From IMG/VR virus record IMGVR_UViG_3300031857_023573, positions 128,001-192,000 of that record: DNA of 64,000 nt; one strand, 5' to 3'. This document shows positions 19,564 through 46,415 of this stretch, piece by piece. Each line of letters starts with the position of its first letter. The first letter of the stretch is position 1. The stretch comes from a virus (Duplodnaviria; Caudoviricetes). The translations under genes and the position numbers were made by a program. The notes beneath the pieces were generated by a model. The model was not told where the DNA came from and searched no databases. It worked only from the letters and a program-made list of their open reading frames with translations.

Positions 19564-19769
19564 TAAATTATCCAGAACCTGATAAAACTTATCGACATTA
19601 TAAGGGTGGACTTTATAAAGTCTTGTTTTTATCAAAACATACTGAAAATTCTGAAATTTTGGTAAACTACCAATCTTTACTTTTTGGTTCTTACTACTCA
19701 AGGCCTTTGGAGTCTTGGAATCAATTGACAGAAGATGGTGAGAAAAGATTTACACAAATTGAAAATTGA
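19560..19769 (+). CDS. DUF1653-like protein
   Basis: YRHYKGGLYKVLFLSKHTENSEILVNYQSL...YSRPLESW. Confidence 0.8.
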   Translation: MINYPEPDKTYRHYKGGLYKVLFLSKHTENSEILVNYQSLLFGSYYSRPLESWNQLTEDGEKRFTQIEN

Positions 19770-19773
19770 CATC

Positions 19774-23453: not shown

Positions 23454-23473
23454 AATTAAAAAATAATTTTGAA

Positions 23474-24220: not shown

Positions 24221-24244
24221 TTGTTCCTATTCAAATGATTAACT

Positions 24245-24271
24245 AAATACAATCGTCTAAGATTTGTATTT
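24245..24271. terminator. Possible hairpin between the convergent nadE and glycan-island transcripts
   Basis: AAATACAATC-GTCTAA-GATTTGTATTT; AT-rich with one bulge, so weak. Confidence 0.3.
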
Positions 24272-24331
24272 TAATCTAGTCTAAATTTACTTTAGTTTCA
24301 CCACCTCCACTTATCCAGAAAAGTAAACTTC

Positions 24332-24928
24332 TTAATTGATTGTTTTGAAAATTTCTAGTTGTGTTAAATCCGGCCAGTCATTTATGTGCCACTGCCTTGG
24401 ACTAGTTGTTATGGCGATAGGAAGTTTTTCTAGACCAAGCTTCGCTGTTTCAGGTGTCATATAATAATGATATCCAATTGTATCAATATTCTGATCTCTC
24501 CAAGGTTTGTCAGGTGTTCTTCCATCATATGACATCTTTTTAAGTAAAATTGATTTTTCATAATTATCAGTTAATATTATACCTCCTCTTCCTAAGGAGA
24601 GATGTTTTTGATATTGAAAACTGAGACACATGAAAGTACCTTGTATGTATGACTTTTTCTTCCACAAAACAGCAGCATCTATGACATTATCTGTTAGATA
24701 ATAATAATCTATCCAATTTTCATCTTTCCACTTTAGATTAATATTCAATTTATTAGATAGAAACGGTATAGAAAGATATGTTCTTTTAGGAACACTTATT
24801 TCTTTAGCATTTGTCATACGAAGACACAATTCAACTCCATGTGTGCAACTGTCAGTTGCTATTGCATAGGAAGCTCCAAAAAAATTAGCTACCTCAATTT
24901 CAAATTCTTTTATTATTTCAAAACTCAT
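24332..24928 (-). CDS. Short DegT/DnrJ/EryC1-type PLP aminotransferase-like protein
   Basis: AIATDSCTHG, IDAA, LSFQYQKHLSLGRGGIILTD (PLP lysine), GYHYYM; only 198 aa. Confidence 0.75.
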   Translation of the reverse strand: MSFEIIKEFEIEVANFFGASYAIATDSCTHGVELCLRMTNAKEISVPKRTYLSIPFLSNKLNINLKWKDENWIDYYYLTDNVIDAAVLWKKKSYIQGTFMCLSFQYQKHLSLGRGGIILTDNYEKSILLKKMSYDGRTPDKPWRDQNIDTIGYHYYMTPETAKLGLEKLPIAITTSPRQWHINDWPDLTQLEIFKTIN

Positions 24929-25442
24929 AACCTAATTTTTTTGCATTTTTTAAAATTTTTTTACTATCTATTTTTTTTACTAATTTTGCAGGATTACCTT
25001 TGTAGACTCCCCACTCTTCCGTATCACCCATTAATAGACTACCTGCTGATAATAAAACTCCTTTTCTAAGTATAGACCCTGGTAGTACTATTGAATTCGT
25101 GCCAATATTTGAGAATTCTTCCATAATTACCGGGTTTGTAATTTGCCTACCTTTCAATTCTTTTGGAATTAAAGCACCGAATAAACCACTATCATCAAAT
25201 CTGTCAGATGAACAAATAATTCTAGCGCCTGTCATTATATTATTAAATCCTTTACAAATCAATTTTGAATTTTCACCACCAATGCATGTGACATAGGGAG
25301 ATATATGTATATAGTCACCTATCTCTATTTGTGTAGTACAATAGAACCCTTTATCAATTGCGACCCTGTTTCCTATTTTACAAAGATTTGGATTTTTAAA
25401 CTCCACATCTGAATGTATTATAACATCAGTTCCTATTGTCAT
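24918..25442 (-). CDS. Hexapeptide-repeat (LbH) acyltransferase
   Basis: IGNRVAID, IGDYIHIS, NIGTNSIVLPGSIL...GVYKGNPAKLVK. Confidence 0.85.
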   Translation of the reverse strand: MTIGTDVIIHSDVEFKNPNLCKIGNRVAIDKGFYCTTQIEIGDYIHISPYVTCIGGENSKLICKGFNNIMTGARIICSSDRFDDSGLFGALIPKELKGRQITNPVIMEEFSNIGTNSIVLPGSILRKGVLLSAGSLLMGDTEEWGVYKGNPAKLVKKIDSKKILKNAKKLGYEF

Positions 25443-26364
25443 TTGTTATACTTTTTTTATCTTTAAAATTTTCACTATTAAAATAGTCTGATAGTTCATT
25501 TATACCAGATTTTAAATCAAATTTAATTTTATAGTCAAGTTTTGATTTAATTTTAGAAAAATTAACTTTATAATCTCTAGGATCATCCCAGTCAACTTTA
25601 TTAACTTTAAAATTTTTAAAAGATAAAAGCTCATCAATTATTTCCCTTTTAGTATAATTTAAACTTTCATCCCCTAAATTGTAAACACCTGTCAAATTTT
25701 TTTCTAAAGAAAGTATAATCATATTACAAGCATCTTCAATGTGAACATATGGTCTCCAAGCTTGCTCACCATAGAGACTGATCTCACCGTCTTTATAAAT
25801 TTCATAAATAAATTGATTAATTGTTAAATCTACCCTCATTCTATGAGAAACACCAAATAATGTAGAACATCTTAAAATTAAATAGGATTTAACATTCTCT
25901 ATTATAAAATTTTCAGCTTTTATTTTAGAAGATGAGTAAATACCTAAGGGGTTTAATTCCGAAGTCTCATCAACAATTAAATCATTTTTCCCATAATTAG
26001 AACAAGTACTCAAAAATAAAAATTGTTTATTTTGATCATCACAAATCTTTGCTAAAAAGATAGCAGCATCTGAGTTTACTCTATATGACTCTTCTTTGTT
26101 AATTTTACAAATGGGCTCACCTACATAAGCAGCTAAATTTATTATAATATCATTTTTGGCAACTATTGATTCTAATTTTACATAGTCCATTACACATCCT
26201 TTTATAAACTGATAATTACTATTATTTAAAAATGGTTTAATACCATCATCTCCAAAATAAAGAATATCATATACTGTGACATTATATCCATTTTCTAAGA
26301 GCTTTTCACTTAACTTAGAACCAAAAAATCCAGCACCTCCGGTGATGAGAACATTTTTACTCAT
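25426..26364 (-). CDS. NAD-dependent sugar epimerase/dehydratase (extended SDR)
   Basis: ITGGAGFFGS, INLAAYVG, STCSNYG, YSSSK (YxxxK), RPYVHIED; ATG at 26364 preferred. Confidence 0.9.
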   Translation of the reverse strand: MSKNVLITGGAGFFGSKLSEKLLENGYNVTVYDILYFGDDGIKPFLNNSNYQFIKGCVMDYVKLESIVAKNDIIINLAAYVGEPICKINKEESYRVNSDAAIFLAKICDDQNKQFLFLSTCSNYGKNDLIVDETSELNPLGIYSSSKIKAENFIIENVKSYLILRCSTLFGVSHRMRVDLTINQFIYEIYKDGEISLYGEQAWRPYVHIEDACNMIILSLEKNLTGVYNLGDESLNYTKREIIDELLSFKNFKVNKVDWDDPRDYKVNFSKIKSKLDYKIKFDLKSGINELSDYFNSENFKDKKSITNDNRN

Positions 26365-27607
26365 ATAAAGAATCTCCAATTTTTATTAATTTAATACCAT
26401 CTTCTTTATTAAGATATCTCCATGGATCAATTACTACTGAACCCTTTGGAAATTTATAATTCAGGAACAAATCGTGATTTGTTCCAATAAAAAATATCGA
26501 ACTATCTATAATTGGGGGATTAGTATCATCTATCCAAGGATCATACATTAATACTTCAATGCCTTTTTCCTCTAGAATGTTTCTAAGTAATATTGATGGA
26601 CTACCAACTGTAAGATTTGTTTCTTTTTTAAATGTTTTACCCAAAATAACTATTGGTAAATTAGTTTTATTTTTTTCCTCGATAATTATATTTGCGAGCC
26701 ACTCAGTCTGATATTCTCTACAATACATCAAACTCTCATACCAGTCATAACTAAGATTTACTTTTTTAGCGAGCCAAGAGAGAGCTATATTATCTCTTGG
26801 GTGACATCCACCACCATCTCCCATGCCACCTGATAAATATTTTGGACTCATTAGTCTCTCATTAGATAATGTGAGAGCCTTCATAACATTATCACAATTT
26901 ATATTATCTAACTTATGTGATAGCTCCATGACAGTATTGGCCAAACATATTTTCATCGTGATATAAGTATTGTATGTCACTTTTATCATTTCTGCTTCTT
27001 CTATTGTGCATTTAAAAACCGACTTATTATGTAATGTAGAATAAAACTTCTTAGTTTTTATGTATGCTTCGTTATCATCTACACCAAAAAGTATAAACTC
27101 TGGGTTTATAAAATCTCTTATTGTTGTACCCATGGCAATAAAAAATGGATTATAACAAAGTTTTACAAACTCATTTAAAAGAGGTTTTATCTCGTTTCTT
27201 ATTGTACCAGGTAGAACTGTTGATATAATTATCACAATTTTTTCTTTTCCTTGTTTCAGAATCTCATCGGAAAGTGTTTTTACTCCAGACTTTAGATATG
27301 TATAGTCAAAATCAACTCTATCTTCAGGAAGTCTTGTTATACCCTCATATTTCTCAGAGTGTGGAGTCTGGATTGGCACAAATATGATATCAGACTTTTC
27401 AACAACTTTTTCAACAGAAGACCAGTTTATTTTACTCTTATTTAAGAGTTCTTGTGCACCTTCTTCTTTGTATGGAAGAATTTTTGTGTCTAAAATTTTT
27501 TTAACTTCTAAATTTATATCATATCCAAATATTTCATGACCAGCATTTTCAGTAGCTAGCGCACAAGGAAGACCAAGTTTTCCTAAACCTATAAATCCTA
27601 TATTCAT
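26357..27607 (-). CDS. UDP-glucose/GDP-mannose 6-dehydrogenase family protein
   Basis: [36 protein letters not shown] (catalytic Cys), LGKTFK. Confidence 0.9.
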
Positions 27608-28419
27608 AAACTGTTATTTTTTTTTGAGATAACTAACCAATGCCAACCTAATTTAGAGCTTAACCATTTGAAAATATTATTCGGCATTATTCTGAAGAAC
27701 CATCTTTTTTTATATTCTTTTTTTATATACTTACTTATAATATAAGGAAAAATATGAAATTTGTTTATTTTAATTATATTAAAATCTCTAAATAAATTTT
27801 TTATCTCTTTCTTATTATAAGTATGAGCTATTGGACATCCTAATTGAGCTTCCGCATAATATTGAATTGATTTTCTTGGATTAAAGAGGAATCTCCAGCC
27901 ATTTGTAAATAATGATTCTAACATTTTATATGAAATGAATGAGTAGACCATTATTCTAACTTCTGTATCATCGTGGCAATATTGTACCAAAGATTTCATG
28001 ATTTTATATGGTTTTGGTGAGTGATGTATCACACCAAATGAATATATCAAATCAAATTTTTCATTTTCAATATACTCATAAATTTCTTCAGCGTTACAAA
28101 GTATGAATCTCGCATTCAAACCATAAACTTCAAATCTTTTTTTACAAATTTCCAGAGATTCTTCTGAGAGTTCTACACAAGTCAGTTCAGCTCCTGCTTT
28201 CGCGAATCTTATAGAGTCTGTTCCTATTCCACATCCCAATTCTAGAACTTTTTTACCACTCCATTTATGAAATTCTGCAAATTCAAGAATATGAGGCTCT
28301 ACAAAATATCTTCTCTTGTCGACTTCTTCAAAGTACTCAATAGTTCCTATTTTTTTATCAGAGTGTTTTATGTTACAGGGTCTTCTGTTCCAATAATCTT
28401 TAACAATTTCAATATTCAT
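27604..28419 (-). CDS. Class I SAM-dependent methyltransferase
   Basis: VLELGCGIG motif [13 protein letters not shown]. Confidence 0.85.
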
Positions 28420-28421
28420 AA

Positions 28422-29255
28422 TTAGTTTAAATTTAAATTTTCTTCAATTAATCCCCAATTATCAGGATTGGCTTTAAAATGATTAGCATGTATATTTTGA
28501 TTTCCACCAGATTGACCACCCCACTTTATACTATGATGATCTATGTGAAAAAAACAAGAATCATTGATATCTTCCAAATCACCAAGACAAGTGTACCTCC
28601 TCGATAATCTCGCATTAAGTTCTATATCTAACCATCCCCATTTGTTTAGTTCTTCAAACCAACAAGTGCTTTCTTCGCATATATTTCTACTCAAAAGTAG
28701 TCCCATAGCCGCCCCGGAAAAATTGTTTAGACTAATTTTTTCATGTCTCCAACTATTTTTTTTAAGCGACCAGTTTGATATAGCATCATCTAAGACCAAA
28801 CTATCTTGTGTGAATTGATAAATTTCAAGAGGTATATGATATCTTGAAGCCCAATAAAATGTTTTAAGTTTATCGGAATTTTTAATTAAATTATATAAAT
28901 TAATGAAGGATTGTGTTGGAATATAACTGTCACCATCGATAAAAAAAACAAAATCTCCAAAACTTCTTCTATAACCGGCATTCATAGCTTTCGAGTATGA
29001 AAATATCGAATCTGGACTATATTTAGAACATATTTCTTTCGGTACGTGGTAAAAACGCGTAAATTGAAATTTAGACGTATCAAGAACATCGTATAATTTT
29101 TTATCACTTCCCCAATCCACGACTATTATTTCTATCTGATTAGTCTTCAATTCTCTTATGTTATCTTCTAATTTTGACAAATTAAATTGAATTCTTTGTA
29201 AGAAGTTACCCGCATATTCGTCATTCTTTCCGCAAGTTATTATTGAAAGTATCAT
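28422..29255 (-). CDS. GT-A glycosyltransferase (GT2/GT7-like)
   Basis: [20 protein letters not shown] (DxD), WGWLDIE, FHIDH. Confidence 0.75.
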
Positions 29256-29322
29256 TAAATATTTTATTTTTATATAGTCATTCTATTCGTTCTGATTAAT
29301 AAAACACTCTTACATATATTAA

Positions 29323-30243
29323 TTAGTAGATTGATTGAGATTCTTGTTTTTTTGATATTTTTTTCAAATCTTTAAAAATTGAGTTTATTCTCGTCTCTAA
29401 GATTTCAAATTTTGAACCTAGTTGTATTTCTTGTTCATACTTCCCATGCCAATGCCAAGTAAAAGCTCCTTCAAATAGAGAGTTTTTTTCATTTTTATTG
29501 AAAGGATCATTTACGGCACCTTCAAATCCCCACTCAGAGTCAAACCAGACACAAGGAAAAATCCAGATATCATTTTTTAACCTCGAATACATAGAATGTC
29601 CCCAGGAAGTAGAATTTTTCTGAGGAGCGATGGTCTTTAGAATTTCTAAATATTCTTTAGAAGCTGGTGAATTTTTATCTAACCTCATTATAGCACCATT
29701 AAAAGTCATAGTAGGTTCGGCCTGATTATGTCCACTTGTACCCCATTGATATAAAAATTCGAAATCATTAAGGGGTGACATGTCTTGCAATACTAAAGCA
29801 TCCATGTCTATATAAAAACCACCATACTTATTCAGTATTAATAATCTGAAAAGATCTCCTTCCAACCAACAAAAATCATCTTTAACTGATTCTTCAGATT
29901 TTAGATAGAAACAATCCTCCAAGATGGTTCCTTTTATTTCGTTTTTTAAATCCCATATTTTAAAGTTCACAAATTCTCTCACTTCTTGAAAATATTCGTT
30001 TGATGTTAAATCCACATTGGACCACAAAAATATTTCGAGATCTTTTAGTCTATTTTGATGTGCCGCTATAATAGATTTAATAACAGCTGACTGCTTTCTT
30101 CCGAAATTTCTTGGAACTCTCCAAAAACAGTGAAAAACTAATTTTGAATTTTCACTTGATTTCATATTTTTTGCAAAATTTAGAGATTTCTCATAGTAAA
30201 TCTTCTCGCTTTTATAAAGCTCTTCACTCAAAAGTTTAAACAT
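29323..30243 (-). CDS. GT32-like DxD glycosyltransferase
   Basis: GDLFRLLILNKYGGFYIDMD, typical of the Gly_transf_sug/GT32 group. Confidence 0.8.
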   Translation of the reverse strand: MFKLLSEELYKSEKIYYEKSLNFAKNMKSSENSKLVFHCFWRVPRNFGRKQSAVIKSIIAAHQNRLKDLEIFLWSNVDLTSNEYFQEVREFVNFKIWDLKNEIKGTILEDCFYLKSEESVKDDFCWLEGDLFRLLILNKYGGFYIDMDALVLQDMSPLNDFEFLYQWGTSGHNQAEPTMTFNGAIMRLDKNSPASKEYLEILKTIAPQKNSTSWGHSMYSRLKNDIWIFPCVWFDSEWGFEGAVNDPFNKNEKNSLFEGAFTWHWHGKYEQEIQLGSKFEILETRINSIFKDLKKISKKQESQSIY

Positions 30244-31033
30244 AATTTATTATTTTTTTTATAAAATCTTCCCAGAAAGAAAGTTTTAATTTATTCAAAT
30301 TCCATTCTTTATTTATTATTTCGTCATATTTCTCATCTAATAACTTCTGATTAACTTCAGTCCAGTCTTTTACAAAAAGTATTGGTAAATCAGTAAATAA
30401 GTGATGTGTATTTTCATACTTCACGATTGGAATTGATCCCATATATAAAGTTTCCCACAACCTATGTGTGTCGATTCCATTACCTCTTGGACAAAAAACA
30501 AACTTTGATGATCTAATTTCTTCTAAATATTTTTTTCTACCGTTCATAGTAGATTCTATATCACCGGATTTTACCCACTTCTCTTTTAAAAAAAGATGAC
30601 TTACTATATTTCTTTCCGATGGATAATTCGATATATTAAAATTCAAATAGGCAAGATGACTTTTATTAACTACTTTCTCAAAAGTGTCAATCATGATATC
30701 TAGATTACCATAAATAGGATGTAGTTCTGAATCATTACAATCATTTGTAATTCCAAGTGGAATGCCATAAACATTTTCTTCCTCTGTGAATCGGTTTATA
30801 CAGAATATTTTATCAAAATATTTTGATATTTGACCAGTTATGGGGTAATCTGAATGTCCGACTACAATTTTTCTGTCAATTTTTTCTGGATGAATATTTC
30901 CTCTCCAGATAAATTTACCAGTATAAAAAAAGTCTGTTTTTATATAGCAAATATTATTTCGATTACAAAATTCTAAATAACCATCAGTAGTAATTATATC
31001 ACTTTTTGTATATGTAAAATCTTTAAGTTTCAA
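30236..31033 (-). CDS. Exostosin/GT47-like glycosyltransferase
   Basis: SKFVFCPRGNGIDTHRLWETLYMGSIPIV. Confidence 0.75.
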   Translation of the reverse strand: MKLKDFTYTKSDIITTDGYLEFCNRNNICYIKTDFFYTGKFIWRGNIHPEKIDRKIVVGHSDYPITGQISKYFDKIFCINRFTEEENVYGIPLGITNDCNDSELHPIYGNLDIMIDTFEKVVNKSHLAYLNFNISNYPSERNIVSHLFLKEKWVKSGDIESTMNGRKKYLEEIRSSKFVFCPRGNGIDTHRLWETLYMGSIPIVKYENTHHLFTDLPILFVKDWTEVNQKLLDEKYDEIINKEWNLNKLKLSFWEDFIKKIINYV

Positions 31034-31079
31034 TTTAAAATAATTTCATTTTAAGAAAAATCAACTTCTTCTGAAGAAG

Positions 31080-32108
31080 TTAAATGATATTCAATTTTTT
31101 GAAAACTGGTTTATTATTTTCAATCCAGTCGAACATCAAACTTACTCCTTCACTTGTATTTATCTTTGGTTCCCATCCTATGTCCTGCTTAATTTTACCT
31201 ATATCACTAATGTATATTTTCTGATCGCCTGGTCTCCAGTCGGAGAAATCAAAATTTACTCTTTTTTCTAACCTGTGTTCAATTAAATCTATAAGTTCTA
31301 AAAGTGATAAAGTATTATTTATACCACCTCCGATGTTATAAACATTACCTGAACATTTGTCAATTTTGTGCAAAATTTGTTCATAGCAATTTATTAGATC
31401 TTTAACGTGTAGAACGTCTCTAACTTGTTTACCATTACCATAAATGGTAAATTTAGAGTCAAATATTGAAGAAATGCTGAACCAAGAGACCCATCCTTGA
31501 TCTTCTATACCGAATTGGTTTGGACCGTAAATACATGACTGTCTTAGTACAACAGATTTCAAATTAAATATTCTACTGTAATCTTTAACATATTGGTCAG
31601 CAGTTCCTTTGGAACAACCATATGGTGAATGAAAATCAAGATTTTGATTCTCATTAATACCTGAAATCAAATCGGTGTAGAAGTATCTTTTATCATTCTC
31701 ATCTATCTGAGACTTAAATTCCCCATAAACTTTATTAGTTGATGAATAAATTATAGCGCAATCTGGTAAATACAATCTTAGGCATTCTAGTATGTTAAAT
31801 GTCCCCAAAGCATTAATCTCGAAGTCTTCTCTTGGATTCCTGACGGAATAAGTAACGGCTACTTGTGCGGCCAAATGTATTACCGCATCAAAACTATTAT
31901 TTTTAAAGATGTTCTCTATATCAAAGAAATTTCTAATATCTTTGTTCCAGAAAGTGAATTTAATTAGTTTTTCCAGAGTATTAAAATTCTCTATATTACC
32001 TTTTCTGCTAAGATTATCTAATATGAAGATTTCATTACCTTTTTCAAATAGTTCAATTGCGGTATTTGTTCCTATGAATCCTAAACCACCTGTTATTAAT
32101 ATTTTCAT
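31080..32108 (-). CDS. rfbE: CDP-paratose 2-epimerase (RfbE)-like extended SDR
   Basis: ITGGLGFIG, LDNLSRKG, HLAAQVAVTYS, SSTNKVYG, LDFHSPYGCSKG, EDQGWVSWF, WRPGDQKIY. Confidence 0.8.
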   Translation of the reverse strand: MKILITGGLGFIGTNTAIELFEKGNEIFILDNLSRKGNIENFNTLEKLIKFTFWNKDIRNFFDIENIFKNNSFDAVIHLAAQVAVTYSVRNPREDFEINALGTFNILECLRLYLPDCAIIYSSTNKVYGEFKSQIDENDKRYFYTDLISGINENQNLDFHSPYGCSKGTADQYVKDYSRIFNLKSVVLRQSCIYGPNQFGIEDQGWVSWFSISSIFDSKFTIYGNGKQVRDVLHVKDLINCYEQILHKIDKCSGNVYNIGGGINNTLSLLELIDLIEHRLEKRVNFDFSDWRPGDQKIYISDIGKIKQDIGWEPKINTSEGVSLMFDWIENNKPVFKKLNII

Positions 32109-33181: not shown

Positions 33182-33870
33182 TAAATGAGATTTATTTTTT
33201 CGTATTGCAAAATTATTTTCCAGTATTCTGGATGCCTTTGATCATTTTCATCGAAAATATCACCGACATATTCATAATTATTTCTTATAGTTGGAAAATT
33301 TCTTATTTCTCCTCCAAATTTCAAATTAAATTCAGAATGTTCCATACAATTATCTATGACTAAAGGATAGATACAACTTCCCAAAAAATCTTGATCTATT
33401 CCCTTTTTTTGGAACTTTCCCCATTTTTCAATCAATTTTATTAGACCAATTTTTCTCATAAGTCCGTTTCTACAACCCCACATTCCTCCTAGTATAGGCA
33501 CTGTGTGATATGGATGATCTCTCATAATATGAAAATCTTTATCAGATTCTATCCATTCTTTAATAGCATAGATTTCCCTATCCGAGAATCTTGAGTCACA
33601 ATCTCTTGATAAGAAAATATTAACATCTGAATCTTCAGCTGTCCAGAATCTCCAGAACATTCCATGAAAATCGTCTTTTGGACTTACTAGTTCTATTTCT
33701 ACATTATCTCCCTTGATAGTCTCTATAAGTTTTTTATCACACTTTTTGTCTATAAAAAACTTACAGATCCATCCTGGGAAATACTTTTTTGCAAGTTCTA
33801 TATTTCTAATAGCCCCAACCCAATACATAGGGTGATCTCCCCAGAGACTGAAAGATATTATATTTCTCAT
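33181..33870 (-). CDS. Putative GT-A glycosyltransferase
   Basis: ISFSLWG, GMFWRF, SRDCDSR (DxD), MRDHPYH, ILGGMWG, DQDFL; island context. Confidence 0.55.
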   Translation of the reverse strand: MRNIISFSLWGDHPMYWVGAIRNIELAKKYFPGWICKFFIDKKCDKKLIETIKGDNVEIELVSPKDDFHGMFWRFWTAEDSDVNIFLSRDCDSRFSDREIYAIKEWIESDKDFHIMRDHPYHTVPILGGMWGCRNGLMRKIGLIKLIEKWGKFQKKGIDQDFLGSCIYPLVIDNCMEHSEFNLKFGGEIRNFPTIRNNYEYVGDIFDENDQRHPEYWKIILQYEKINLI

Positions 33871-34508
33871 AAATAAGTTGTATTTTTGAAAGTTTCATTC
33901 TCAACTATTAGATATCCACATCTATCATTTAATTCATCTAATAATATTGTATATCCTTCTCTATTAATTAACTCTTCACGTATTTTTTGACACTTTAACT
34001 GATTGGTGTCATCTAAAATTATAAATCTAGCTCTGTGTCCTATCTTTAAATACTCAGGATATGTTGTAAACTCACCACCATCTAAAATAAGTAAATCAAT
34101 TCGTTTAGGTATCAAGTCAATTTTATTCTCAACCAATCTGAGATTATATAAATCCTCATTTAGCCATTCTCTCTTACTACCAGCGTGATAGTATCCTTCA
34201 GGGCTGTTAAAATATTCATCCCAATTCATCCAGTTTAGATCATCTTCGTCTATTATTCTACCGAGAATTATGTTGAAATTTTTAGGAAATTCTCTTTGAA
34301 TAGCCTGATAATACATCTTTTCATTCGTCTCTAAGGAATATACTGTGTAGTTTTCTTTGTTATTATCAACTATAGATTTTCTGATACATTCAGTTGAACC
34401 GTAACCATTCCAGGTTCCTATTTCAACTATGTTATTTATATCTTTTCTAGAAACTAGATCATATATATACTTTCCAAGTTTTGAATCTAAATTTATTTGT
34501 CCTTGCAT
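33867..34508 (-). CDS. Class I SAM-dependent methyltransferase-like protein
   Basis: IVEIGTWNGYGST, IDLLILDGG, IILDD. Confidence 0.7.
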   Translation of the reverse strand: MQGQINLDSKLGKYIYDLVSRKDINNIVEIGTWNGYGSTECIRKSIVDNNKENYTVYSLETNEKMYYQAIQREFPKNFNIILGRIIDEDDLNWMNWDEYFNSPEGYYHAGSKREWLNEDLYNLRLVENKIDLIPKRIDLLILDGGEFTTYPEYLKIGHRARFIILDDTNQLKCQKIREELINREGYTILLDELNDRCGYLIVENETFKNTTYL

Positions 34509-34515
34509 AATATTT

Positions 34516-35187
34516 CTAAATATTTTTTATGTAGATTTGATATGGCATTCCATTTTCACCTATTCCCGGTCTTGAAGTAGTTTGACCATAAAATATAGGT
34601 ACGTCGTCAACAATATTTTTGAAATTTAAATCATTATCTTTTAGAATGTTGTATATTTCTAACCAGTCTTTTGCGAAATGACATTCAATTACTGCAAATT
34701 TACAATTTTTTAAGGTTTTTAATCCTCCTTTTATGACTTTTAATTCAGCTCCTTCTACATCTATTTTGATATAATCTACTTTTTTTCCTTCAAAATATTC
34801 ATCCAGTGAAACCGATTTAATATTACCGATCAGATTCATTTTACGATAAGCAGTGTCGTGTCCAACAATATTAGATGTATGATTTCCAGAGTTTAGACTA
34901 TCACCATAAATATCAACTTGACCTGAACTTTCAGATACTGCAACATTTTCTATTATGCAGTTTTCAGATTGTAGATATTTAATTGTTTCAAAATTATATG
35001 GATTTAATTCAAAAGAAAAAACCTGGCCGTTCCTACCAGCTAATCTTTTGAAAAGTCTTGTGATGACACCATTACAGGCACCAACATCACAAAAAACTCC
35101 ACCAGTTGACGTATTTTCTTCGAATTTGATAGACAACAAGGTGTCCCAATCGTTTATTTGTATTCTATATTTCTCCCAAGCTTCCAT
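34516..35187 (-). CDS. FkbM-family methyltransferase
   Basis: FCDVGACNG, FELNPYN, VSLDEY, DYIKIDVEGAELKVIKG. Confidence 0.88.
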   Translation of the reverse strand: MEAWEKYRIQINDWDTLLSIKFEENTSTGGVFCDVGACNGVITRLFKRLAGRNGQVFSFELNPYNFETIKYLQSENCIIENVAVSESSGQVDIYGDSLNSGNHTSNIVGHDTAYRKMNLIGNIKSVSLDEYFEGKKVDYIKIDVEGAELKVIKGGLKTLKNCKFAVIECHFAKDWLEIYNILKDNDLNFKNIVDDVPIFYGQTTSRPGIGENGMPYQIYIKNI

Positions 35188-35206
35188 TTTTTTTATTTAT
35201 TTTTTT

Positions 35207-36037
35207 TTACCAATAAGTTGAACCTTCTACTACAGAATGGTTTCGTGTTTTTTCAGTGTCATAGGGTCTTTTCCAATATTGATTATAATATTTGTTGACA
35301 GCTGGCATATTATCCCATCTATTTCCCTTTATACCAAACATAATTTGCAATCCACCACCAACATGGATTACGGGCTTACTCATTTTTTTTATTTGATTAC
35401 ATATTGGTAAACCGTAAGCACCGCATCCAACAAGGGCAACATCGAATTCCACATTCGAGATTCTCTCTACCATATCTTCATAGCAAACATTCCAAGGTAT
35501 ATCAGTGTCTCCTCCCCCGTGTGTTTGATATGTTTTTAGAGTTATTAGATCAAAATCAGGCAAAATTGTTTTGTCTTCAAATAATAATTCTTTTCTTGAG
35601 TATTGTTCACGTATAGATGCCTCAAATGGATGAACAACTAAAACTTTTTTATCTTTTAAGTATTTACTCCAGGGATTTTCATGATAAAATGGCTCCAAGG
35701 ATTGTAATCCAGAAATGAACTCAGCATTCCTACAAAAGTATCTAGAGATAGTAAATTCTTCGGAATTGATATTTTCTGGAAACCAAATTGTTAGAAGATC
35801 AATATTGGATAGTGCATCTATGTACTCTTTTATAAAGTAATTCAATATATAATCTGATGGTGGAGTTATTCCTGCGTGATTTGATGCATGCCATCTTAGC
35901 GAATCATCCCAATTCCTCTTATAAAGAAAGTATTTTACAATCTGTTGTTCTACTGCTCCCATTTTTCCGGCTATAAATGGTGTAGACGAAGATATAAGTT
36001 CTCCTATTTTTAAATTACCTTGTTCTATTGATATCAT
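35207..36037 (-). CDS. Conserved glycan-locus protein, possible glycosyltransferase
   Basis: KKVLVVHPF, FDVALVGCGAYGLP, IHVGGGLQIMFGIKGNRWD; function inferred from context only. Confidence 0.5.
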   Translation of the reverse strand: MISIEQGNLKIGELISSSTPFIAGKMGAVEQQIVKYFLYKRNWDDSLRWHASNHAGITPPSDYILNYFIKEYIDALSNIDLLTIWFPENINSEEFTISRYFCRNAEFISGLQSLEPFYHENPWSKYLKDKKVLVVHPFEASIREQYSRKELLFEDKTILPDFDLITLKTYQTHGGGDTDIPWNVCYEDMVERISNVEFDVALVGCGAYGLPICNQIKKMSKPVIHVGGGLQIMFGIKGNRWDNMPAVNKYYNQYWKRPYDTEKTRNHSVVEGSTYW

Positions 36038-36041
36038 TTTT

Positions 36042-37268
36042 TTAAATTATTTTAATTTCTGGTATTAAAACGATATATTTACCATCGTAATAACCCTTTA
36101 AAGATTCTATTATATGTTCTGTAAAATTATGAGCTAATATTAAGATATAGTCAGGTTTTCTCTCTTTTAATATTTCTCTACTTTTAACTTCTATACCTGT
36201 TCCTGGAATGAATTTATTTTGCTTTAAATCTGTATCGTCTATAACAAATTCTATGTGATTGTAATTAATTTCCATTGAGTTTAGGTAAATGCATCCTTTT
36301 GCTGCCGCACCGAATCCATATATCACCTTATTATCACTAATAATATTTTTTATGAAATTTGATGATCTATCAATATGATTTCTAACACTCACACCCCAAT
36401 TTATGTGAAAATCAGAATCGTAATTTTTTTCATACTTTATAAAGTCTTCAATAGTCATGTCAGATTCCAAATTAGAAATATTTTTTACAATAACAAGTCT
36501 TAAAGTACCACCGTGAATGGCCTGATTTGTAACGTTAATAATTCTCATATTATGTTTTTCCATCATCATTTTCATAGGTCTTACCGAGTGATAATACATA
36601 TGTTCGTGATATATTTGATCAAATTGATTGGTCTTCATGTCATGAATCCAATATGGAAACTCTAAAATCCAAATTCCATCGTCTTTTAATATATTATTAA
36701 TCCCTTGTACAAATGAATCCAAATCTTGAAGATGTTGAAAAACATTTGTCGATGTTACTATATCAGCCTTTTCTGATATATTAAGTGAAAGATCATATGT
36801 GAAGAAATCATTTATGCATCTTATGTCTTTATTCTCACAAATTTCACATAGGTTTTTTGATGGATCTATATTTAGTAGTGACATTTCAATATCACTTGCA
36901 CTTCTAAAGGCATCGAGTAATGTACCATCGTTACCTCCGATATCTATCACTTTCAAATCGCTAATACTATTGATATAATTTTTAGAAAAATTAAACATTT
37001 CTTGACAGTGTTTATAGTATGGCTTATTTACTTCTGATTTAAATAAATAATGTGAAAATAATAAATCACCATTAATAGCTATACTGAGAGAAGACTCACC
37101 GGAAATTGGATAGTAAATAATTTCCAACGGAAATCTCTCTGCATTAAGAGATTCTTCCCTACTATTAAGTAAATTATTTACTAAGGGAACTCTTCCAAGA
37201 TCAAAATATTTTATTCTATTAGTATCTTGAGTAATTGGGCATTTATCTATCACTTTATAGTTTTTCAT
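36042..37268 (-). CDS. NDP-hexose C-methyltransferase family protein
   Basis: FDLGRVPLVN, IDIGGNDGTLL, NVFQHL, FDQIYHEH, IHGGTLR, YGFGAAAKG, ILILAHNF: three-domain C-MTase layout. Confidence 0.85.
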   Translation of the reverse strand: MKNYKVIDKCPITQDTNRIKYFDLGRVPLVNNLLNSREESLNAERFPLEIIYYPISGESSLSIAINGDLLFSHYLFKSEVNKPYYKHCQEMFNFSKNYINSISDLKVIDIGGNDGTLLDAFRSASDIEMSLLNIDPSKNLCEICENKDIRCINDFFTYDLSLNISEKADIVTSTNVFQHLQDLDSFVQGINNILKDDGIWILEFPYWIHDMKTNQFDQIYHEHMYYHSVRPMKMMMEKHNMRIINVTNQAIHGGTLRLVIVKNISNLESDMTIEDFIKYEKNYDSDFHINWGVSVRNHIDRSSNFIKNIISDNKVIYGFGAAAKGCIYLNSMEINYNHIEFVIDDTDLKQNKFIPGTGIEVKSREILKERKPDYILILAHNFTEHIIESLKGYYDGKYIVLIPEIKII

Positions 37269-37929
37269 ACTTTTCTAAATTTAGACTAAAGTTTTTTTTC
37301 TCTTTCAAGAATACTTTTTTAACAAGATTATTTCTTTTATACGCATAATCAAATATTGTTTTTGGTTCGGTACCAATATTTAAAACTCCATTAATATTGG
37401 ATTTAGCAGCCTTTAGTATCTTAGGAGCAATAATATCAATATAATCTTTGCTCACAATTTGATTTCCCCATGCTTGGTCATATGGAAATACATTAGGTCC
37501 AAAACTAGTTCTAATTATTAAGTGATTTTTTACCATTCGAACTGAACACTCACCGCCCAATTTTGTCCAAGCGTATTCATTTACTGGTAAAACAGGATCT
37601 GACTCTTTGTAATTACCATCAAGTCCTGGATATACATAGTCAGTAGAAATATATATCAATCGTTTATTATTCAATAAACAATATTCTGATATGTTAGCAC
37701 TACCAATTATGTTGGTTTTAATTGAAAGAATTGGCTCTTTAATTATAACTTTAGAATCAGTTATAGCAGATGAGTGAATTATAATATCAGGATTAATAGT
37801 GTTTAATTTTGATATTATACTTAACTTTGTAATATCATAGTATTCCTTAGAAAGTCCTAGAATTGTATCGTCTATTTTTTGTAACTCAGATGTTAAAAGA
37901 CCATGTTTGCCAGTCACTACTACTTTCAT
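37255..37929 (-). CDS. dTDP-4-dehydrorhamnose reductase (RmlD)-like SDR
   Basis: VTGKHGLL, IYISTDYVY, PVNEYAWTKLGGE, IIRTSF. Confidence 0.8.
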   Translation of the reverse strand: MKVVVTGKHGLLTSELQKIDDTILGLSKEYYDITKLSIISKLNTINPDIIIHSSAITDSKVIIKEPILSIKTNIIGSANISEYCLLNNKRLIYISTDYVYPGLDGNYKESDPVLPVNEYAWTKLGGECSVRMVKNHLIIRTSFGPNVFPYDQAWGNQIVSKDYIDIIAPKILKAAKSNINGVLNIGTEPKTIFDYAYKRNNLVKKVFLKEKKNFSLNLEKYEKL

Positions 37930-38679
37930 TTAAGATTTATATTTATTATAGACATCCATCATTTCATGTGGTTTTATGTAATGAAAGCTCATAGGTCTTT
38001 TAAGAGCCTCTGTAAGTGGAATTGGAAAATTAACATACCACTTTGTGTTTTCATCCCCCGAAATAGCACCCAAATAATGTGATGGTGGCTGACCAAGGAG
38101 ATAAGGCATATTAGTTAATCTTATGTTTAAATATTTGAATACCATATAGGCAAACGCTACATCTGAATAGGGATAATTTGGTCCGGAAATTCTAATCCAA
38201 TTTTCATTAAAACTGTCAATTATTTGGTAGCATTTTTTCATAAGTGAGTTACTAATAAAAAATCCGCCTCCTCCGGCTATAGCTGTAAATGAATTATCTG
38301 ATGGATTATCTATCGCATGGAAGTAGGGTGTATCGGTCCAAGTTCCACATGCAAGAGCTAATAAAAAATCTTGGTTATGATCGTATTTATAGATTTCATT
38401 CAAAGTTGAATTCTTGAATAATATCGCGTCACAACTTGTCATACAGTACCAATCAAAATTAGGATTCTTTTCAAACATGTACTTGAACCCTAATTGTTGT
38501 TTTAAAAAATGACTGTTGTAGTCTTCGCCTGCTTGACTTATTGAGATGAGATTGTCATCTTGTAAATATCCACCAAAGAAAAAAACATTTTGAAAATCTT
38601 TAGACCAGGTGTTTTTACAAGCCATGTATCTTTCCTTTAGTCTTGTAGAGGTTACAACTCCTACTCCAATATTATCCAT
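37930..38679 (-). CDS. Fringe/GT31-like glycosyltransferase
   Basis: CKNTW, WYCMTSCD, GGGGFFIS, SDVAFA, MSFHY. Confidence 0.6.
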   Translation of the reverse strand: MDNIGVGVVTSTRLKERYMACKNTWSKDFQNVFFFGGYLQDDNLISISQAGEDYNSHFLKQQLGFKYMFEKNPNFDWYCMTSCDAILFKNSTLNEIYKYDHNQDFLLALACGTWTDTPYFHAIDNPSDNSFTAIAGGGGFFISNSLMKKCYQIIDSFNENWIRISGPNYPYSDVAFAYMVFKYLNIRLTNMPYLLGQPPSHYLGAISGDENTKWYVNFPIPLTEALKRPMSFHYIKPHEMMDVYNKYKS

Positions 38680-38685
38680 TTCTAA

Positions 38686-39351
38686 TTATAAATTATTTTT
38701 TACAAAAATTGAATCCCATTGAATGTTTCCGAGTAGTTTATAACCTTTGTTTGAAAGAAACTCAATTTCTTTATTTAGTCCGTAATTATTTTCTATTAGA
38801 AAAACATCAATATCGACTTTATCGAAGTTTATAGAGTTTAAAACTTGTGATTCAGCCCCTTCAACATCGATTGACAAGAGATCAATTTTTTTTATCCCAT
38901 GTTTGTCAAATAGTGTCTCTAGTCGGACAGCCTTCATTGGTATTTCTTCTTTACGTGAGTAAAGGTCATGACCTTGAGGATAATTTTTGTACATTTCTAA
39001 TTCCTTGTTTATTCTATCTAGATGTTGAGGATTATAGAATTCTATAATTCCACTTAGAACATTACAAGGTCCTTCAATAGATAAAAAATTTATATCTTTT
39101 TCAATATCTGAAATCGCACAATTTTCAAAAACCGATTTTGGACGCGGATGTTGATGTCGTTTTTCAAACTCTATTGGATTAGGTTCTATCAAAAGACCAG
39201 ACCAATTTCTTTCCATTTCAAAAAACCAAGTATTGGATGCTCCAAAACCATCTAATGCACCAACTTCAACAAAGAATCCATTTGTTTTATTTTTGAAAAC
39301 TTGTTCATCGAGAATCAAATCTTGATGTATTTGTGACTTACTATTTTCCAT
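38686..39351 (-). CDS. FkbM-family methyltransferase
   Basis: GFFVEVGALDG, SNTWFFE, LLIEPN, IDLLSIDVEGAE. Confidence 0.9.
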   Translation of the reverse strand: MENSKSQIHQDLILDEQVFKNKTNGFFVEVGALDGFGASNTWFFEMERNWSGLLIEPNPIEFEKRHQHPRPKSVFENCAISDIEKDINFLSIEGPCNVLSGIIEFYNPQHLDRINKELEMYKNYPQGHDLYSRKEEIPMKAVRLETLFDKHGIKKIDLLSIDVEGAESQVLNSINFDKVDIDVFLIENNYGLNKEIEFLSNKGYKLLGNIQWDSIFVKNNL

Positions 39352-39405
39352 TAATATTTTTATAATTTTATTTTGTTTTGTTTAGTTGTGAACAGACTTT
39401 TATCA

Positions 39406-40242
39406 TTAATTATTTGAAGTAAAAATTTTATATAAAAAGTGTTTTATATTTTCTATTCTATTTTCTTCTATGATTTTATTATCGATTATCCAATGTATTT
39501 TCAACATTTCTAAATATAGAGAGTTGTTTTGGTCTAAATCAATTATACTTTGGATCAAGTCATCTAAATTATTAAAATCATAAAAATTAATAAATGATTT
39601 AGTATTGAATTCTCTGTATATTAATGGATTACCCCAATATATTGGAATTGAATTCACGGTCATTGGTTCCATAATTTTCTCAGTTGTATACCCGGGATGT
39701 TGAGGTCTGTAAGCGTTATTTTCGAATGCAATTGAAAACTTATACTCAGACTGAAATTTTCTCTTGTCTGTGACTGCATATCCAATATTATTCATCCATC
39801 TTCCACCACAATCTACTTTTTTATATTTAGATAACTGATGAACAAAATCATTTCGTTCCTTACAGTTTCCGTTAGATGCAACGAAATTACAAAATTTTCT
39901 ATTTACCAGTGATTCATCAATTATTTTAGGCCTGCTTAACTCATAATAACCGTCATAAAGAAGATAATGTGGTAATCTATAGTTTCTTGAATCATCTAAA
40001 TAATCAAAAGAGAATGACCACTGACAATATCCTAATGGAGGTGCGACATTTTCACCAGTATAAAATATCTTAGTACATTTATAATTCTGATGATTATTTC
40101 CAAATACTGAAAAGAATAAATAATCTGGGTTATTGGATATTTCAACCTCAAATTCCTCTATTAGAAGATTATAGAAATAGTTATTTGTTTTGTCAAATCC
40201 TCCCCAGAAGTCTGAGAAATCTATTCTAATTTTATTTTTCAT
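39406..40242 (-). CDS. GT10 alpha-1,3/4-fucosyltransferase-like protein
   Basis: IFYTGEN, KFCNFVASN, YKFSIAFEN...GYTTEKI, IPIYWGN. Confidence 0.88.
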   Translation of the reverse strand: MKNKIRIDFSDFWGGFDKTNNYFYNLLIEEFEVEISNNPDYLFFSVFGNNHQNYKCTKIFYTGENVAPPLGYCQWSFSFDYLDDSRNYRLPHYLLYDGYYELSRPKIIDESLVNRKFCNFVASNGNCKERNDFVHQLSKYKKVDCGGRWMNNIGYAVTDKRKFQSEYKFSIAFENNAYRPQHPGYTTEKIMEPMTVNSIPIYWGNPLIYREFNTKSFINFYDFNNLDDLIQSIIDLDQNNSLYLEMLKIHWIIDNKIIEENRIENIKHFLYKIFTSNN

Positions 40243-40940
40243 ATACTAACTTTTAATCTTTCTTCTAAACTTAGTTTTTTTCTCAATTCCCAAGTCTTTT
40301 TATCTTTTTCGAAATTATTATAATATGACTGATCATTTTGATCAGCTTGTCTTTTTCCTGATGACCAGTGATGGTGTTCAAAAATGTAATTTATGTCATT
40401 TGCTCTTTCGTCAATTATTAGATTCATTTCTTTTAAATTCAAAAAGAGCTCAGCATCTGAACAAAGATGTGTATATACTGGGTTATAAATAATTTTATTT
40501 AATTTGACTAAACAATCAAATGTCATGACAGGTATACTAAAAATAGGCTCTGCCATATTTGAAAAATCTAAAGCTTGATAACCATCATTTACGAGAAGAG
40601 CTCCTGTTTTGTTTTGTAATTTATTAATTAAGTATTCATCCCAATTTTGGGGTGGTGTAAAATCGTCAGATCCGAATATCACAACATCTGATTTTTGAGC
40701 TTCTAAACTAGATGAAAGTTTATAACTTGGTAGGCAAACACCTCTATAAGGAGGATCAAATACAACTATTCTATTAGAAAGATTTAGACTTTGAAAATAA
40801 TTTTCTAAGAATACTTTTTCATTTTCAGTTGATACTAAAACGTGTGTATGAAATTTTTTATATTTTGACCTAGTAAGCCAATGATTGAATATATTTGGAA
40901 AATTTCCTGTTCTGATAGTGCACCATAGTAAATGTATCAT
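40239..40940 (-). CDS. GT2-like glycosyltransferase
   Basis: VIFGSDDF (DxD-like), LLVNDG, IYNPVYTHLCSDAE, FEHHHW. Confidence 0.65.
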   Translation of the reverse strand: MIHLLWCTIRTGNFPNIFNHWLTRSKYKKFHTHVLVSTENEKVFLENYFQSLNLSNRIVVFDPPYRGVCLPSYKLSSSLEAQKSDVVIFGSDDFTPPQNWDEYLINKLQNKTGALLVNDGYQALDFSNMAEPIFSIPVMTFDCLVKLNKIIYNPVYTHLCSDAELFLNLKEMNLIIDERANDINYIFEHHHWSSGKRQADQNDQSYYNNFEKDKKTWELRKKLSLEERLKVSI

Positions 40941-40997
40941 AAATTATCTTTACTTTTTTATTATATTGATAATTTATACGGTGGTTTTCAAAAATAA

Positions 40998-41594
40998 TCA
41001 AATCTTCTGAATAATTTGAGGTACTGTACCGAGCTCAAGAACTTTACTTCTATCTAGTAGGAATTCTACTTCATAAAAATTGAAGTGAAAAGTCATTGTA
41101 AATTCTTTTGATGAGATTTTCTGTTGTGCATAATCAAACTTATTATCACTCAAATTCTTTAAAATTATCTCTTTGAATATGATTCTGTAAATCCCATCGC
41201 GGTGAATATCGACAGCTGTAATTGTAAATGGATTCAAATACAAATTATCGACATCTAAATAGTGCTTAGATACTATATCAAAAACAATCCAGTAGTTGAT
41301 ATCAGCGTCTACGGACGCAAAAGTAATAGTAATATCATGACCAACAATATCTTGAATGTTTTTAGCCGGCTTATATTGTCTTTCTTTACCACGAATAAGA
41401 TATTGCATAGGTAGTTCAAAAGATATACCAGGAAAACTAACGGCCTTAATTGTTGAGTTAAGATAGTCAATTACATTTTCATACTGAATCCAGTTTTTAT
41501 CTAAAATAGGTGTGTATGAATTAAGTACCTCAGGTGGTACGAAATTTGCCGGTAGGTTAAATACAAATTGACTCGATTGTGAACTTAAACGCAC
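40998..41594 (-). CDS. Tail-tube-fold protein, T4 gp3 (tail terminator)-like
   Basis: IKAVSFPGISF, DITITFASVD...NYW and terminal FTMTFHFNFYEVE parallel gp3 (QSVPIPGI, LIVRFIVDE, ATIPYTYFQVE). GTG start, with GAATATATA 25 nt upstream. Confidence 0.6.
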   Translation of the reverse strand: MRLSSQSSQFVFNLPANFVPPEVLNSYTPILDKNWIQYENVIDYLNSTIKAVSFPGISFELPMQYLIRGKERQYKPAKNIQDIVGHDITITFASVDADINYWIVFDIVSKHYLDVDNLYLNPFTITAVDIHRDGIYRIIFKEIILKNLSDNKFDYAQQKISSKEFTMTFHFNFYEVEFLLDRSKVLELGTVPQIIQKI

Positions 41595-41627
41595 TTCTTA
41601 TTTTTATTTTTATTATTATTATATATT

Positions 41628-46402: not shown

Positions 46403-46415
46403 AAAAACTCCCTTT

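Follow-up and report, generated by a model that had tools for sequence, protein, structure and literature searches.

A 20-gene glycan-building cassette beside a gp3-like tail gene in a Mahaphage-clade megaphage is a candidate virion-glycosylation system

Results

The stretch of viral DNA analysed here, called the window, comprises 64,000 nt of the Caudoviricetes record IMGVR_UViG_3300031857_023573 (positions 128,001 to 192,000), and contains a cassette of genes predicted to build a glycan, next to a gp3-like tail gene. The phage is a megaphage of the Mahaphage clade; its gp32-like single-stranded DNA-binding protein (gene 47874; genes are designated here by their lower coordinate) is 77-78 % identical to those of LR745206 and LR756502, two uncultured phages with genomes of 634-642 kb. 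In the study that reported these two phages, the genomes of more than 634 kb were placed in the Mahaphage clade, with predicted Bacteroidetes hosts (PMC7162821). No near-identical DNA was found among GenBank phages; in metagenomes, the window DNA turns up repeatedly in samples from lakes and other fresh water dated 2017 to 2025. The host of the window phage is probably a freshwater member of the Bacteroidota. For comparison, 33 IMG/VR loci were collected via the gp3-like protein and combined with the GenBank genomes LR745206 and LR756502; individual loci are cited by L number.

Twenty co-directional open reading frames (ORFs), overlapping or at most 67 nt apart, occupy positions 24332-40940 of the minus strand, as a preliminary description of the window had it. 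Based on Pfam, on AlphaFold2 (AF2) models searched with Foldseek, and on Atlas assignments, which are language-model leads, the inventory consists of seven supported glycosyltransferases (GTs) and two candidates, five methyltransferases, and six nucleotide-sugar enzymes. The earlier tally of about nine GT-like genes and five methyltransferases stands in this form, with two weak matches (35207 and 33867) among the family calls. The GTs span at least six families. Using Kyte-Doolittle hydropathy in a 19-residue window as the membrane criterion, none of the 20 proteins exceeds a value of 1.4, and all 20 cassette products are soluble. No initiating phosphoglycosyl transferase, flippase/polymerase or exporter is present in the cassette; on this point, and on the absence of membrane anchors, hydropathy and Pfam agree with what had been described.

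The gene closest to the tail gene (40239-40940) encodes a GT-A-fold glycosyltransferase of a Pfam-less family, assigned through its AF2 model and Foldseek. It is followed by a GT10 alpha-1,3-fucosyltransferase-family enzyme (39406-40242), with matches to FucT_N (PF18025; 3.5e-27, 95 bits) and Glyco_transf_10 (PF00852; 4e-20, 72.6 bits), both above the Pfam cut-offs. No genes for GDP-fucose synthesis were recognised among the window genes in the Pfam and NCBIfam scans, and the GDP-L-fucose donor would need to be supplied by the host. Matches above the cut-off also identify a Fringe-like (GT31) glycosyltransferase (37930-38679; PF02434, 4e-8), a GT47/RXYLT1-like glycosyltransferase (30236-31033; RXYLT1_C, 2.7e-10; in addition Exostosin_GT47, 4e-8) and a GT32-type DXD glycosyltransferase (29323-30243; Gly_transf_sug, 7e-9), and a GT2 glycosyltransferase is encoded at 28422-29255 (Glyco_tranf_2_2, 2.5e-8; Glycos_transf_2, 7.8e-8). 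The candidates are a GT-D-like glycosyltransferase (35207-36037; PF22882, 7.6e-5, below the cut-off) and a hexosyltransferase (33181-33870), which has no Pfam match and an Atlas lead to 'Hexosyltransferase'/GT8 clusters. The adjoining gene (32105-33181) encodes a putative enzyme, likewise Pfam-less and of unassigned fold, that is paired with 33181 not only in phages but also in loci of the peptide-glycosylation type in the Bacteroidota.

The five methyltransferases are one C-methyltransferase and four O- or other methyltransferases. The former is an NDP-hexose C-methyltransferase-like enzyme (36042-37268; Methyltransf_14, 4e-29, plus a class I methyltransferase domain), and the latter are two FkbM-family methyltransferases (38686-39351, PF05050, 8e-18; 34516-35187, PF05050, 2e-20), a class I S-adenosylmethionine-dependent methyltransferase (27604-28419; Methyltransf_31/25/11, 1e-14 to 5e-17), and a possible methyltransferase with a weak match (33867-34508; Methyltransf_24, 0.0057, below the cut-off).

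Two lines of nucleotide-sugar synthesis are predicted from the remaining genes. A 6-deoxy/C-methyl-hexose line would run through an NDP-hexose 4,6-dehydratase/epimerase of the short-chain dehydrogenase/reductase (SDR) type (31080-32108; GDP_Man_Dehyd, 6e-54; Epimerase, 1e-42; best NCBIfam match dTDP-glucose 4,6-dehydratase, 2e-58, below the cut-off), an RmlC-like NDP-4-keto-6-deoxyhexose 3,5-epimerase, the C-methyltransferase, and a short RmlD-like NDP-4-keto-6-deoxyhexose reductase of 224 aa (37255-37929; RmlD_sub_bind, 1e-27; TIGR01214, 7e-25, below the cut-off). The RmlC-like gene (19735-20286, plus strand; dTDP_sugar_isom, 1e-30; PHROG 8784; TIGR01221, 7e-26) lies outside the interval 24332-40940 and is nevertheless predicted to complete this line. 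An amino/uronic line would be formed by an NDP-sugar 6-dehydrogenase (26357-27607; all three UDPG_MGDP_dh domains; TIGR03026, 9.5e-57, above the cut-off), an SDR epimerase/dehydratase (25426-26379; Epimerase, 3.6e-33), a hexapeptide-repeat sugar acyltransferase (24918-25442; Hexapep, 7e-7; NeuD/PglB/VioB and WcaF subfamily matches), and a miniature DegT-like protein of the pyridoxal phosphate (PLP) aminotransferase family (24332-24928, 198 aa; DegT_DnrJ_EryC1, 1.8e-15). The last of these aligns to perosamine synthetase 3bn1 in two pieces (residues 39-90 and 170-247), and its copy in LR756502 is of nearly the same size (196 aa). It keeps the SFxxxK PLP-lysine motif and lacks the C-terminal domain, so that the aminotransferase reported previously is retained as a DegT-like protein, in miniature form.

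Close relatives of single cassette genes occur elsewhere in the clade. The NDP-sugar dehydrogenase has a 75 % identical copy in LR756502, the C-methyltransferase-like gene a 70 % identical copy in L014, where it lies beside the same reductase and GT31 gene, and the GT-D-like candidate has 70-82 % identical copies in L007 and L014. In LR756502 (L002, 27468-28919, plus strand), the SDR epimerase and hexapeptide acyltransferase, which are separate genes in the window, form one ORF of 483 aa. In L030 (12527-15079, minus strand), and likewise in L031, the NDP-sugar dehydrogenase homologue is found in two ORFs (378 aa and 192 aa) around an ORF of 266 aa, which may represent a mobile insertion or a split gene.

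The cassette supplies two large Pfam-less enzyme families, one a GT-A family with more than 210 members (40239) and the other, of the 32105 type, with more than 390 members and an unassigned fold. None of the more than 210 homologues of 40239 has a Pfam domain or an informative name; those known lie on metagenomic or large phage-type contigs, and no relative was found by a pattern scan of 185,579 species genomes. The AF2 model of 40239 (25 homologues; predicted local distance difference test score, pLDDT, 92.5) has a confident GT-A fold, with Foldseek matches to the WrtF fucosyltransferase, PcManGT, TarS/TarP and WbbL (E 1e-7 to 1e-5), and the family has an invariant S91-D92-D93 motif. On this model it is confidently predicted to be a GT-A glycosyltransferase. 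It occurs as the first or second cassette gene, and usually as the first in order of transcription, whichever the orientation of the cassette. Whole-genome searches covered five related genomes, of which three have a completeness of 91 % or more; 40239 is present in just two of the five, in this slot only, and is therefore a frequent module and not a universal core gene.

The 32105 family has 393 homologues without a Pfam domain, and neither the protein nor the family profile has a PDB or Pfam match. A search with the family profile returned 23 cellular loci. In all five of the cultured Bacteroidota loci (Chitinophaga deserti, C. eiseniae, C. hostae, Pedobacter steynii and P. nutrimenti), homologues of 32105 and 33181 are paired, and in Pedobacter they are directly adjacent. 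The 32105 protein is 37-40 % identical to its Pedobacter and Chitinophaga homologues where scored. The 33181 homologue in the five loci has 205 aa, lies downstream of the 32105 homologue, and starts with MKK(I/V)ISFSLWG, as does 33181 itself, which is 48 % identical to the homologues in the two loci that were scored (L063, 11085-11702; L065, 12348-12965). The P. steynii locus (L063, 7492-20906) also contains a GT2 and an FkbM methyltransferase gene, the C. eiseniae locus (L065, 4125-20297) also contains a GT10 gene, and both encode thioredoxin/VKOR-type proteins, a Peptidase_C39-ABC exporter and its HlyD-like partner. In a regular-expression scan of all small ORFs, each of the five loci was found to encode between one and four small Cys-rich peptides with double-glycine leaders (MKKLKL...LTRxQLKNVLGG).

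Glycocins are O- or S-glycosylated ribosomally synthesised and post-translationally modified peptides (PMC12457901). By gene content, the Chitinophaga and Pedobacter loci resemble glycocin loci and would add more than one sugar to the peptide, and L049, L054 and L061 are alike in this. A glycocin locus is laid out for cytoplasmic glycosylation of a peptide that is subsequently exported, and we know of no description of multi-sugar loci of this type in the Bacteroidota. Because homologues of 32105 and 33181 are found in loci for glycosylated peptides, a polypeptide acceptor for the phage cassette gains independent contextual support.

A synteny survey of the relatives, which had been suggested earlier, found the cassette in a fixed slot, flanked on one side by the gp3-like gene and on the other by a gene for a ClpB/ClpC-type double AAA+ ATPase (21330-23453, plus strand). 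The block running from gp32 through the gene of the 43733 family to the gp3-like gene is syntenic in all relatives, and every slot adjoins the gp3-like tail-tube-fold gene. The content of the slot ranges from about 1.3 kb without a glycan gene (L023) to about 24 kb (LR756502). Co-direction with the gp3-like gene is restricted to the closest subclade, to which belong the window, L004-L007 and L013 and, with a short ORF run, L022. Since most relatives have the cassette inverted and the slot of L023 is without any glycan gene, the position next to the tail gene looks like the use of a permissive slot. On one side of this slot is a tail-type unit, of which the gp3-like gene is the last gene, and on the other, convergent with it, is a ClpC-ATPase/NadE unit. 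Only imperfect AT-rich pairs were found in a search for flanking inverted repeats that could invert the cassette, and the difference in orientation is therefore treated as evolutionary rearrangement, not as a switch.

The cassette is modular, hypervariable, and horizontally exchanged between lineages. L014 and the window have in common ten cassette genes that are 33-81 % identical (nine of them 49 % or more) and differ in order and orientation, although the backbones are just 34-76 % identical. In L004 the backbone is closer, with identities of up to 91 %, yet most of the cassette differs. Pfam scans of 46 ORFs, taken from four cassettes that look unrelated, found GDP-mannose dehydratase, UDP-galactopyranose mutase, nucleotidyltransferases, GT2, GT11, GT47, FkbM and HAD phosphatases. 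Contigs from four metagenome sources that partly cover 23000-42999 were fragmentary, with the short-sided joints that are typical of AT-rich assemblies, and are not used as evidence. One contig of 4.3 kb from X19 is about 97 % identical to positions 39777-40940 and then diverges, a weak hint of cassette variants within populations.

The lack of membrane components extends across the lineage. Among 233 cassette ORFs from 25 relatives, which were surveyed for membrane segments and orientation, none has more than one predicted membrane segment. Bac_transf, Glycos_transf_4, Polysacc_synt (Wzx) and Wzy_C were found nowhere in the five related genomes, ABC-2 permeases not being part of the genome-wide search. 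No C39 exporter or ABC gene is present in the window cassette or in the 33 phage loci.

The conserved neighbour on one side of the slot (40998-41594, minus strand) encodes a protein of 198 aa with a predicted tail-tube fold, 52-86 % identical across the 33 relatives. It has no significant Pfam match and no PHROG match, and its Atlas lead is to Phage_TTP_2/gp19. The AF2 model (22 homologues) is of medium confidence (pLDDT 62). All 50 of the PDB matches listed by Foldseek are virion or contractile-injection-system entries, nearly all of them tail-tube, tube-terminator or Hcp chains, including the T4 neck-tail complex, the P1 inner tube, the PVC/AFP tube and Hcp; the best E value is 2.7e-4, with template modelling (TM) scores of 0.3-0.49. 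In hhalign comparisons, the family profile aligned with T4 gp3 over 125 columns (22 % identity, E 0.015, with a probability of only 3 %) and with gp19 over 22 columns (E 0.32). The name gp3-like tail gene, taken over from the preliminary description, is reasonable for the modelled fold and for an alignment that is better with gp3 than with gp19, and the sequence link itself is weak. Distant relatives in Tenacibaculum phage PTm1 and Sphingomonas phage PAU are labelled only as 'hypothetical protein'.

Upstream of the gp3-like gene, on the same strand, are tandem paralogues of 691 aa (41628-43703) and 878 aa (43733-46369), 33 % identical overall, from a family that is conserved beside the gp3-like gene, in single copy in most relatives and duplicated in the subclade of the window. 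The family has a consensus motif ETAxVTR (...IAIVTRRK... in 41628), which in many members lies close to the C-terminus, ahead of a short variable tail. A role as tail sheath was considered for the paralogues and is unsupported by Pfam, PHROGs, PDB sequence search, Atlas, or comparison of the family profile with T4 gp18. Likewise, the C-terminal tails of the family (9-47 % Ser+Thr) were considered as a sign of a glycan acceptor and set aside, as such tails are also present in L023, which has no glycan genes in the slot.

In the window, the gp3-like gene is separated from the first cassette gene by an AT-rich spacer of 57 nt (40941-40997, minus strand). The terminator scan found no hairpin in this spacer, as had been noted before, and none that is convincing inside the cassette; clear terminators with a GC stem and T run are present in the gaps at 46370-46415 and 47757-47873. 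The nearest promoter-like motif upstream of the cassette is an exact match to TAATATATA at 46394-46402 (minus strand), upstream of 43733-46369. Of the eight exact copies of TAATATATA in the window, six precede a same-strand start codon by no more than about 25 nt, and the interval from 24332 to 46390 contains none. The motif is directly upstream of the orthologous 43733-family gene in at least eight relatives, and therefore behaves like a promoter. Across the window and its relatives (L004 at 5518 and 9988, L014 at 7719, L018 at 7824, and others) it lies 15-30 nt upstream of start codons, and in L013 the co-directional cassette itself carries it. That the promoter is 'late' is our inference. 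A scan for sigma-70-type promoters gave counts equal to the shuffled expectation and was uninformative.

A promoter or terminator separating the island from the structural genes, which the preliminary description had named as evidence that would count against it, was looked for, and no copy of TAATATATA and no terminator lies between the island and the tail gene. Neither was found from 46394 to the end of the cassette, which makes read-through out of the tail unit plausible in this phage. The cassette is inverted in about three-quarters of relatives, and the argument from co-expression with the tail gene is therefore local to the subclade of the window; late expression together with the structural genes, as proposed earlier, is plausible to this extent.

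Elsewhere in the window, 54454-57420 (plus strand) encodes a protein of 601 aa with a DUF7487 and a Mom-family domain, followed by a GT2 of about 370-390 aa; a GT2 of about 390 aa is encoded at least once in each of the five related genomes. From its domains, this may be a conserved pair for modification of DNA or another macromolecule, separate from the variable cassette. The window also encodes an unusually full set of chaperones for a phage, with two DnaJ-type proteins and an Hsp70 (7731-8462, 57413-58465 and 62134-63999, minus strand) in addition to the ClpB/ClpC-type ATPase (21330-23453, plus strand). An ORF of more than 2,550 aa without a Pfam match, open at the window start, occupies 1-7734 (plus strand).

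Discussion

Judged from its gene content, the cassette is predicted to be a soluble cytoplasmic glycan-building set. We lean, by a modest measure, towards a polypeptide as the acceptor of its enzymes, and glycosylation of virion proteins is the best reading of the cassette, with a probability of roughly 0.45. In the cytoplasm of the infected cell, the enzymes would assemble a methylated hetero-oligosaccharide specific to the strain, with a polypeptide as acceptor, most likely at least one virion protein. In the window phage, transcription that starts at the late-type promoter of the tail unit would read through into the cassette. As a member of a phage-type family that is usually first in the cassette, 40239 is a candidate for the acceptor-proximal step. 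A variable glycan would alter the surface of the particle, and with it adsorption and shielding from recognition by host or grazer, a surface diversification akin to that of the cell surface by an O-antigen locus.

Several observations weigh against virion glycosylation. No acceptor protein could be pinpointed in the window, which has no Ser/Thr-rich (mucin-like) or repeat protein that might serve as one, and no support was obtained for a structural role of the 691- and 878-aa paralogues beside the gp3-like gene. The link to peptide loci is carried by only two of the 20 cassette genes. Outside the Bacteroidota, the homologues of 32105 adjoin a lone GT47-like, SDR or GT2 gene, with no peptide context, and none of these cases that were read lies in a polysaccharide-export locus. 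A double-glycine peptide is absent from the window and the phage loci, as judged by the regular-expression scan of small ORFs. About 19 other distinct loci (about three-quarters of relatives) have the cassette on the other strand, where it follows the non-structural ATPase gene and converges with the tail gene, and cassettes placed in this way are mostly without the TAATATATA motif. Finally, soluble glycosyltransferases also act on undecaprenyl-linked intermediates, and proteins without membrane helices are therefore compatible with a lipid-linked route via host initiation and export. Of the virion-glycan proposal made in the preliminary description, the soluble glycan set and the support for a polypeptide acceptor are retained; no acceptor was found, and remodelling of the host surface remains a serious rival.

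In that rival, which the preliminary description had listed as an alternative, the soluble enzymes would add sugars to an intermediate linked to undecaprenyl phosphate, for which the host would provide initiation, flipping and ligation as part of its O-antigen, capsule, or general Bacteroidota protein O-glycosylation. The altered surface of the infected cell would exclude superinfecting phages or keep progeny from adsorbing to debris. We regard this as possible but on balance doubtful. It is the published reading of polymorphic NDP-sugar/GT clusters in jumbo phages (PMC7824862). The hypervariability and module exchange of the cassette resemble those of O-antigen loci, and in about three-quarters of relatives it runs in the direction of the ClpC-ATPase/NadE unit and not of the tail genes. 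The palette of uronic and amino sugars, fucosyltransferase, O-methylation and deoxyhexose also resembles Bacteroidota surface glycans. Against this, no initiating transferase, flippase, polymerase or multi-helix membrane protein is encoded in the 25 cassettes, and no initiator, Wzx or Wzy in the five genomes. Known seroconverting phages add one to three genes, and up to nine GTs would amount to a whole new glycan, which would need to be accepted by the Wzx, Wzy and ligase of the host. Furthermore, the Bacteroidota homologues of 32105 and 33181 sit in peptide-export, not polysaccharide, loci, and the GT-A family of the first gene was not found in cellular genomes in the scan of 185,579 species.

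It is improbable that the glycan is placed on a polypeptide other than a virion protein, such as injected cargo, a secreted peptide or a host factor, whether the protein or peptide is from the phage or from the cytoplasm of the host. The bacterial homologues do lie in loci whose substrates are small exported peptides, and the failure to pinpoint a structural acceptor in the window also fits; however, neither the double-glycine peptide nor the C39 exporter of those loci is present in the window or the 33 phage loci, and selection on an exposed surface would account more readily for a glycan that is hypervariable and differs between strains. A free, lipid-linked or small-molecule-linked glycoconjugate, such as a glycolipid or glycosylated natural product, is very unlikely. 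Although Methyltransf_14, RmlD-like and DegT-like enzymes are typical of glycosylated natural products, there is no aglycone pathway (polyketide synthase, non-ribosomal peptide synthetase or terpene) in the window, and the usual role of the GT31, GT10, GT32 and GT47-like families is to lengthen sugar chains carried by proteins or by other glycans. Least probable of all is DNA hypermodification, another alternative from the preliminary description, with the glycan on hydroxymethyl-pyrimidine or another modified base for evasion of restriction: phage GTs are able to attach a range of glycans to DNA (Pyle 2024, as cited in PMC12619734), but there is no base-modifying enzyme in or beside the cassette, each related genome has a single Thymidylat_synt-family gene, which is ThyA-like (199-332 bits, a score that alone cannot separate a hydroxymethylase), the separate Mom-family and GT2 pair is a better candidate for DNA chemistry, and with up to nine GTs, C-methyl and amino-uronic pathways and turnover at the level of strains, the cassette does not resemble known DNA systems.

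The preferred reading, glycosylation of virion proteins, has precedents among viruses. Giant viruses glycosylate autonomously, as in the capsid N-glycans of chloroviruses and the fibril glycan gene clusters of the Mimiviridae. They share with the cassette pathways of 4,6-dehydratase, aminotransferase and acetyltransferase, cytoplasmic GT families of 'eukaryote-like' type, methylation of sugars, and clade-specific content; the cassette, however, belongs to a bacterial virus, and the likeness is drawn at the level of gene content. In mycobacteriophages, capsid and tail-tube subunits are glycosylated (Freeman et al. 2023, as cited in PMC12619734). Che8, Corndog and Myrna, as cited there, are like the cassette in having phage-encoded soluble GTs with methyltransferases near the structural genes, and the tail tube subunit is among their modified proteins. 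Those systems have a few genes and a host from another phylum, whereas the cassette has 20 genes with its own nucleotide-sugar pathways. In contrast to those systems, the slot described here is hypervariable and inverted in most relatives, and the cassette is known from its genes alone.

Three further kinds of locus are comparable in part. The polymorphic NDP-sugar/GT clusters of jumbo (cyano)phages, read as capsular or O-antigen modification (Iyer et al. 2021, PMC7824862), have sporadic and polymorphic sugar-nucleotide enzymes, paralogous GT families and O-methyltransferases in very large phages, as does the cassette. Whereas that work assigns its clusters to the host surface, the fixed slot of the cassette beside a tail gene, the failure to find an export function across the lineage and the homologues in peptide-glycosylating loci speak more for a polypeptide as acceptor. 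Bacterial O-antigen and capsule clusters have a similar mix of nucleotide-sugar enzymes, GTs and modifying enzymes, with module exchange and serotype-like diversity, whereas no membrane component (initiating transferase, Wzx/Wzy or ABC exporter) was found in the cassette and the related genomes are without initiator, Wzx and Wzy. Loci of the glycocin type (the sublancin/glycocin F class; PMC12457901, PMC6405829), in their Chitinophaga and Pedobacter examples, share homologues of 32105 and 33181 with the cassette, which lacks the precursor peptide, C39 exporter and thioredoxin genes and has only these two of its 20 genes in common with them.

It was already known that phages, such as the mycobacteriophages, have GT cassettes near structural genes, and that jumbo phages have polymorphic sugar clusters (PMC7824862); a 2026 review of jumbo phages contains neither the word glycosyl nor the word glycan. 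What is new is the scale of the cassette in a genome of the Mahaphage clade (20 genes, with up to nine GTs and five methyltransferases), the fixed slot, in which modules are exchanged and both orientations occur, the two large Pfam-less families, and the link to multi-GT peptide loci of the Bacteroidota. The clade may conceivably carry a 'glyco-serotype' locus, and this is put forward tentatively, as a rather unlikely proposal: a recombining, orientation-flipping cassette, comparable to the O-antigen locus of a bacterium, would write a lineage-specific methylated oligosaccharide onto virion proteins in the cytoplasm, with enzyme families shared with multi-sugar peptides of Chitinophaga and Pedobacter.

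If the particle is where the glycan sits, the largest phages known would bear an exchangeable coat of sugars, of a genetic complexity comparable to that of giant eukaryotic viruses. Such a coat, if real, would bear on host range, on escape from recognition by host or grazer, and on the classification of uncultured phages. In addition, the cassette points to unstudied multi-GT peptide loci in culturable Bacteroidota, in which the function of the enzymes is directly testable.

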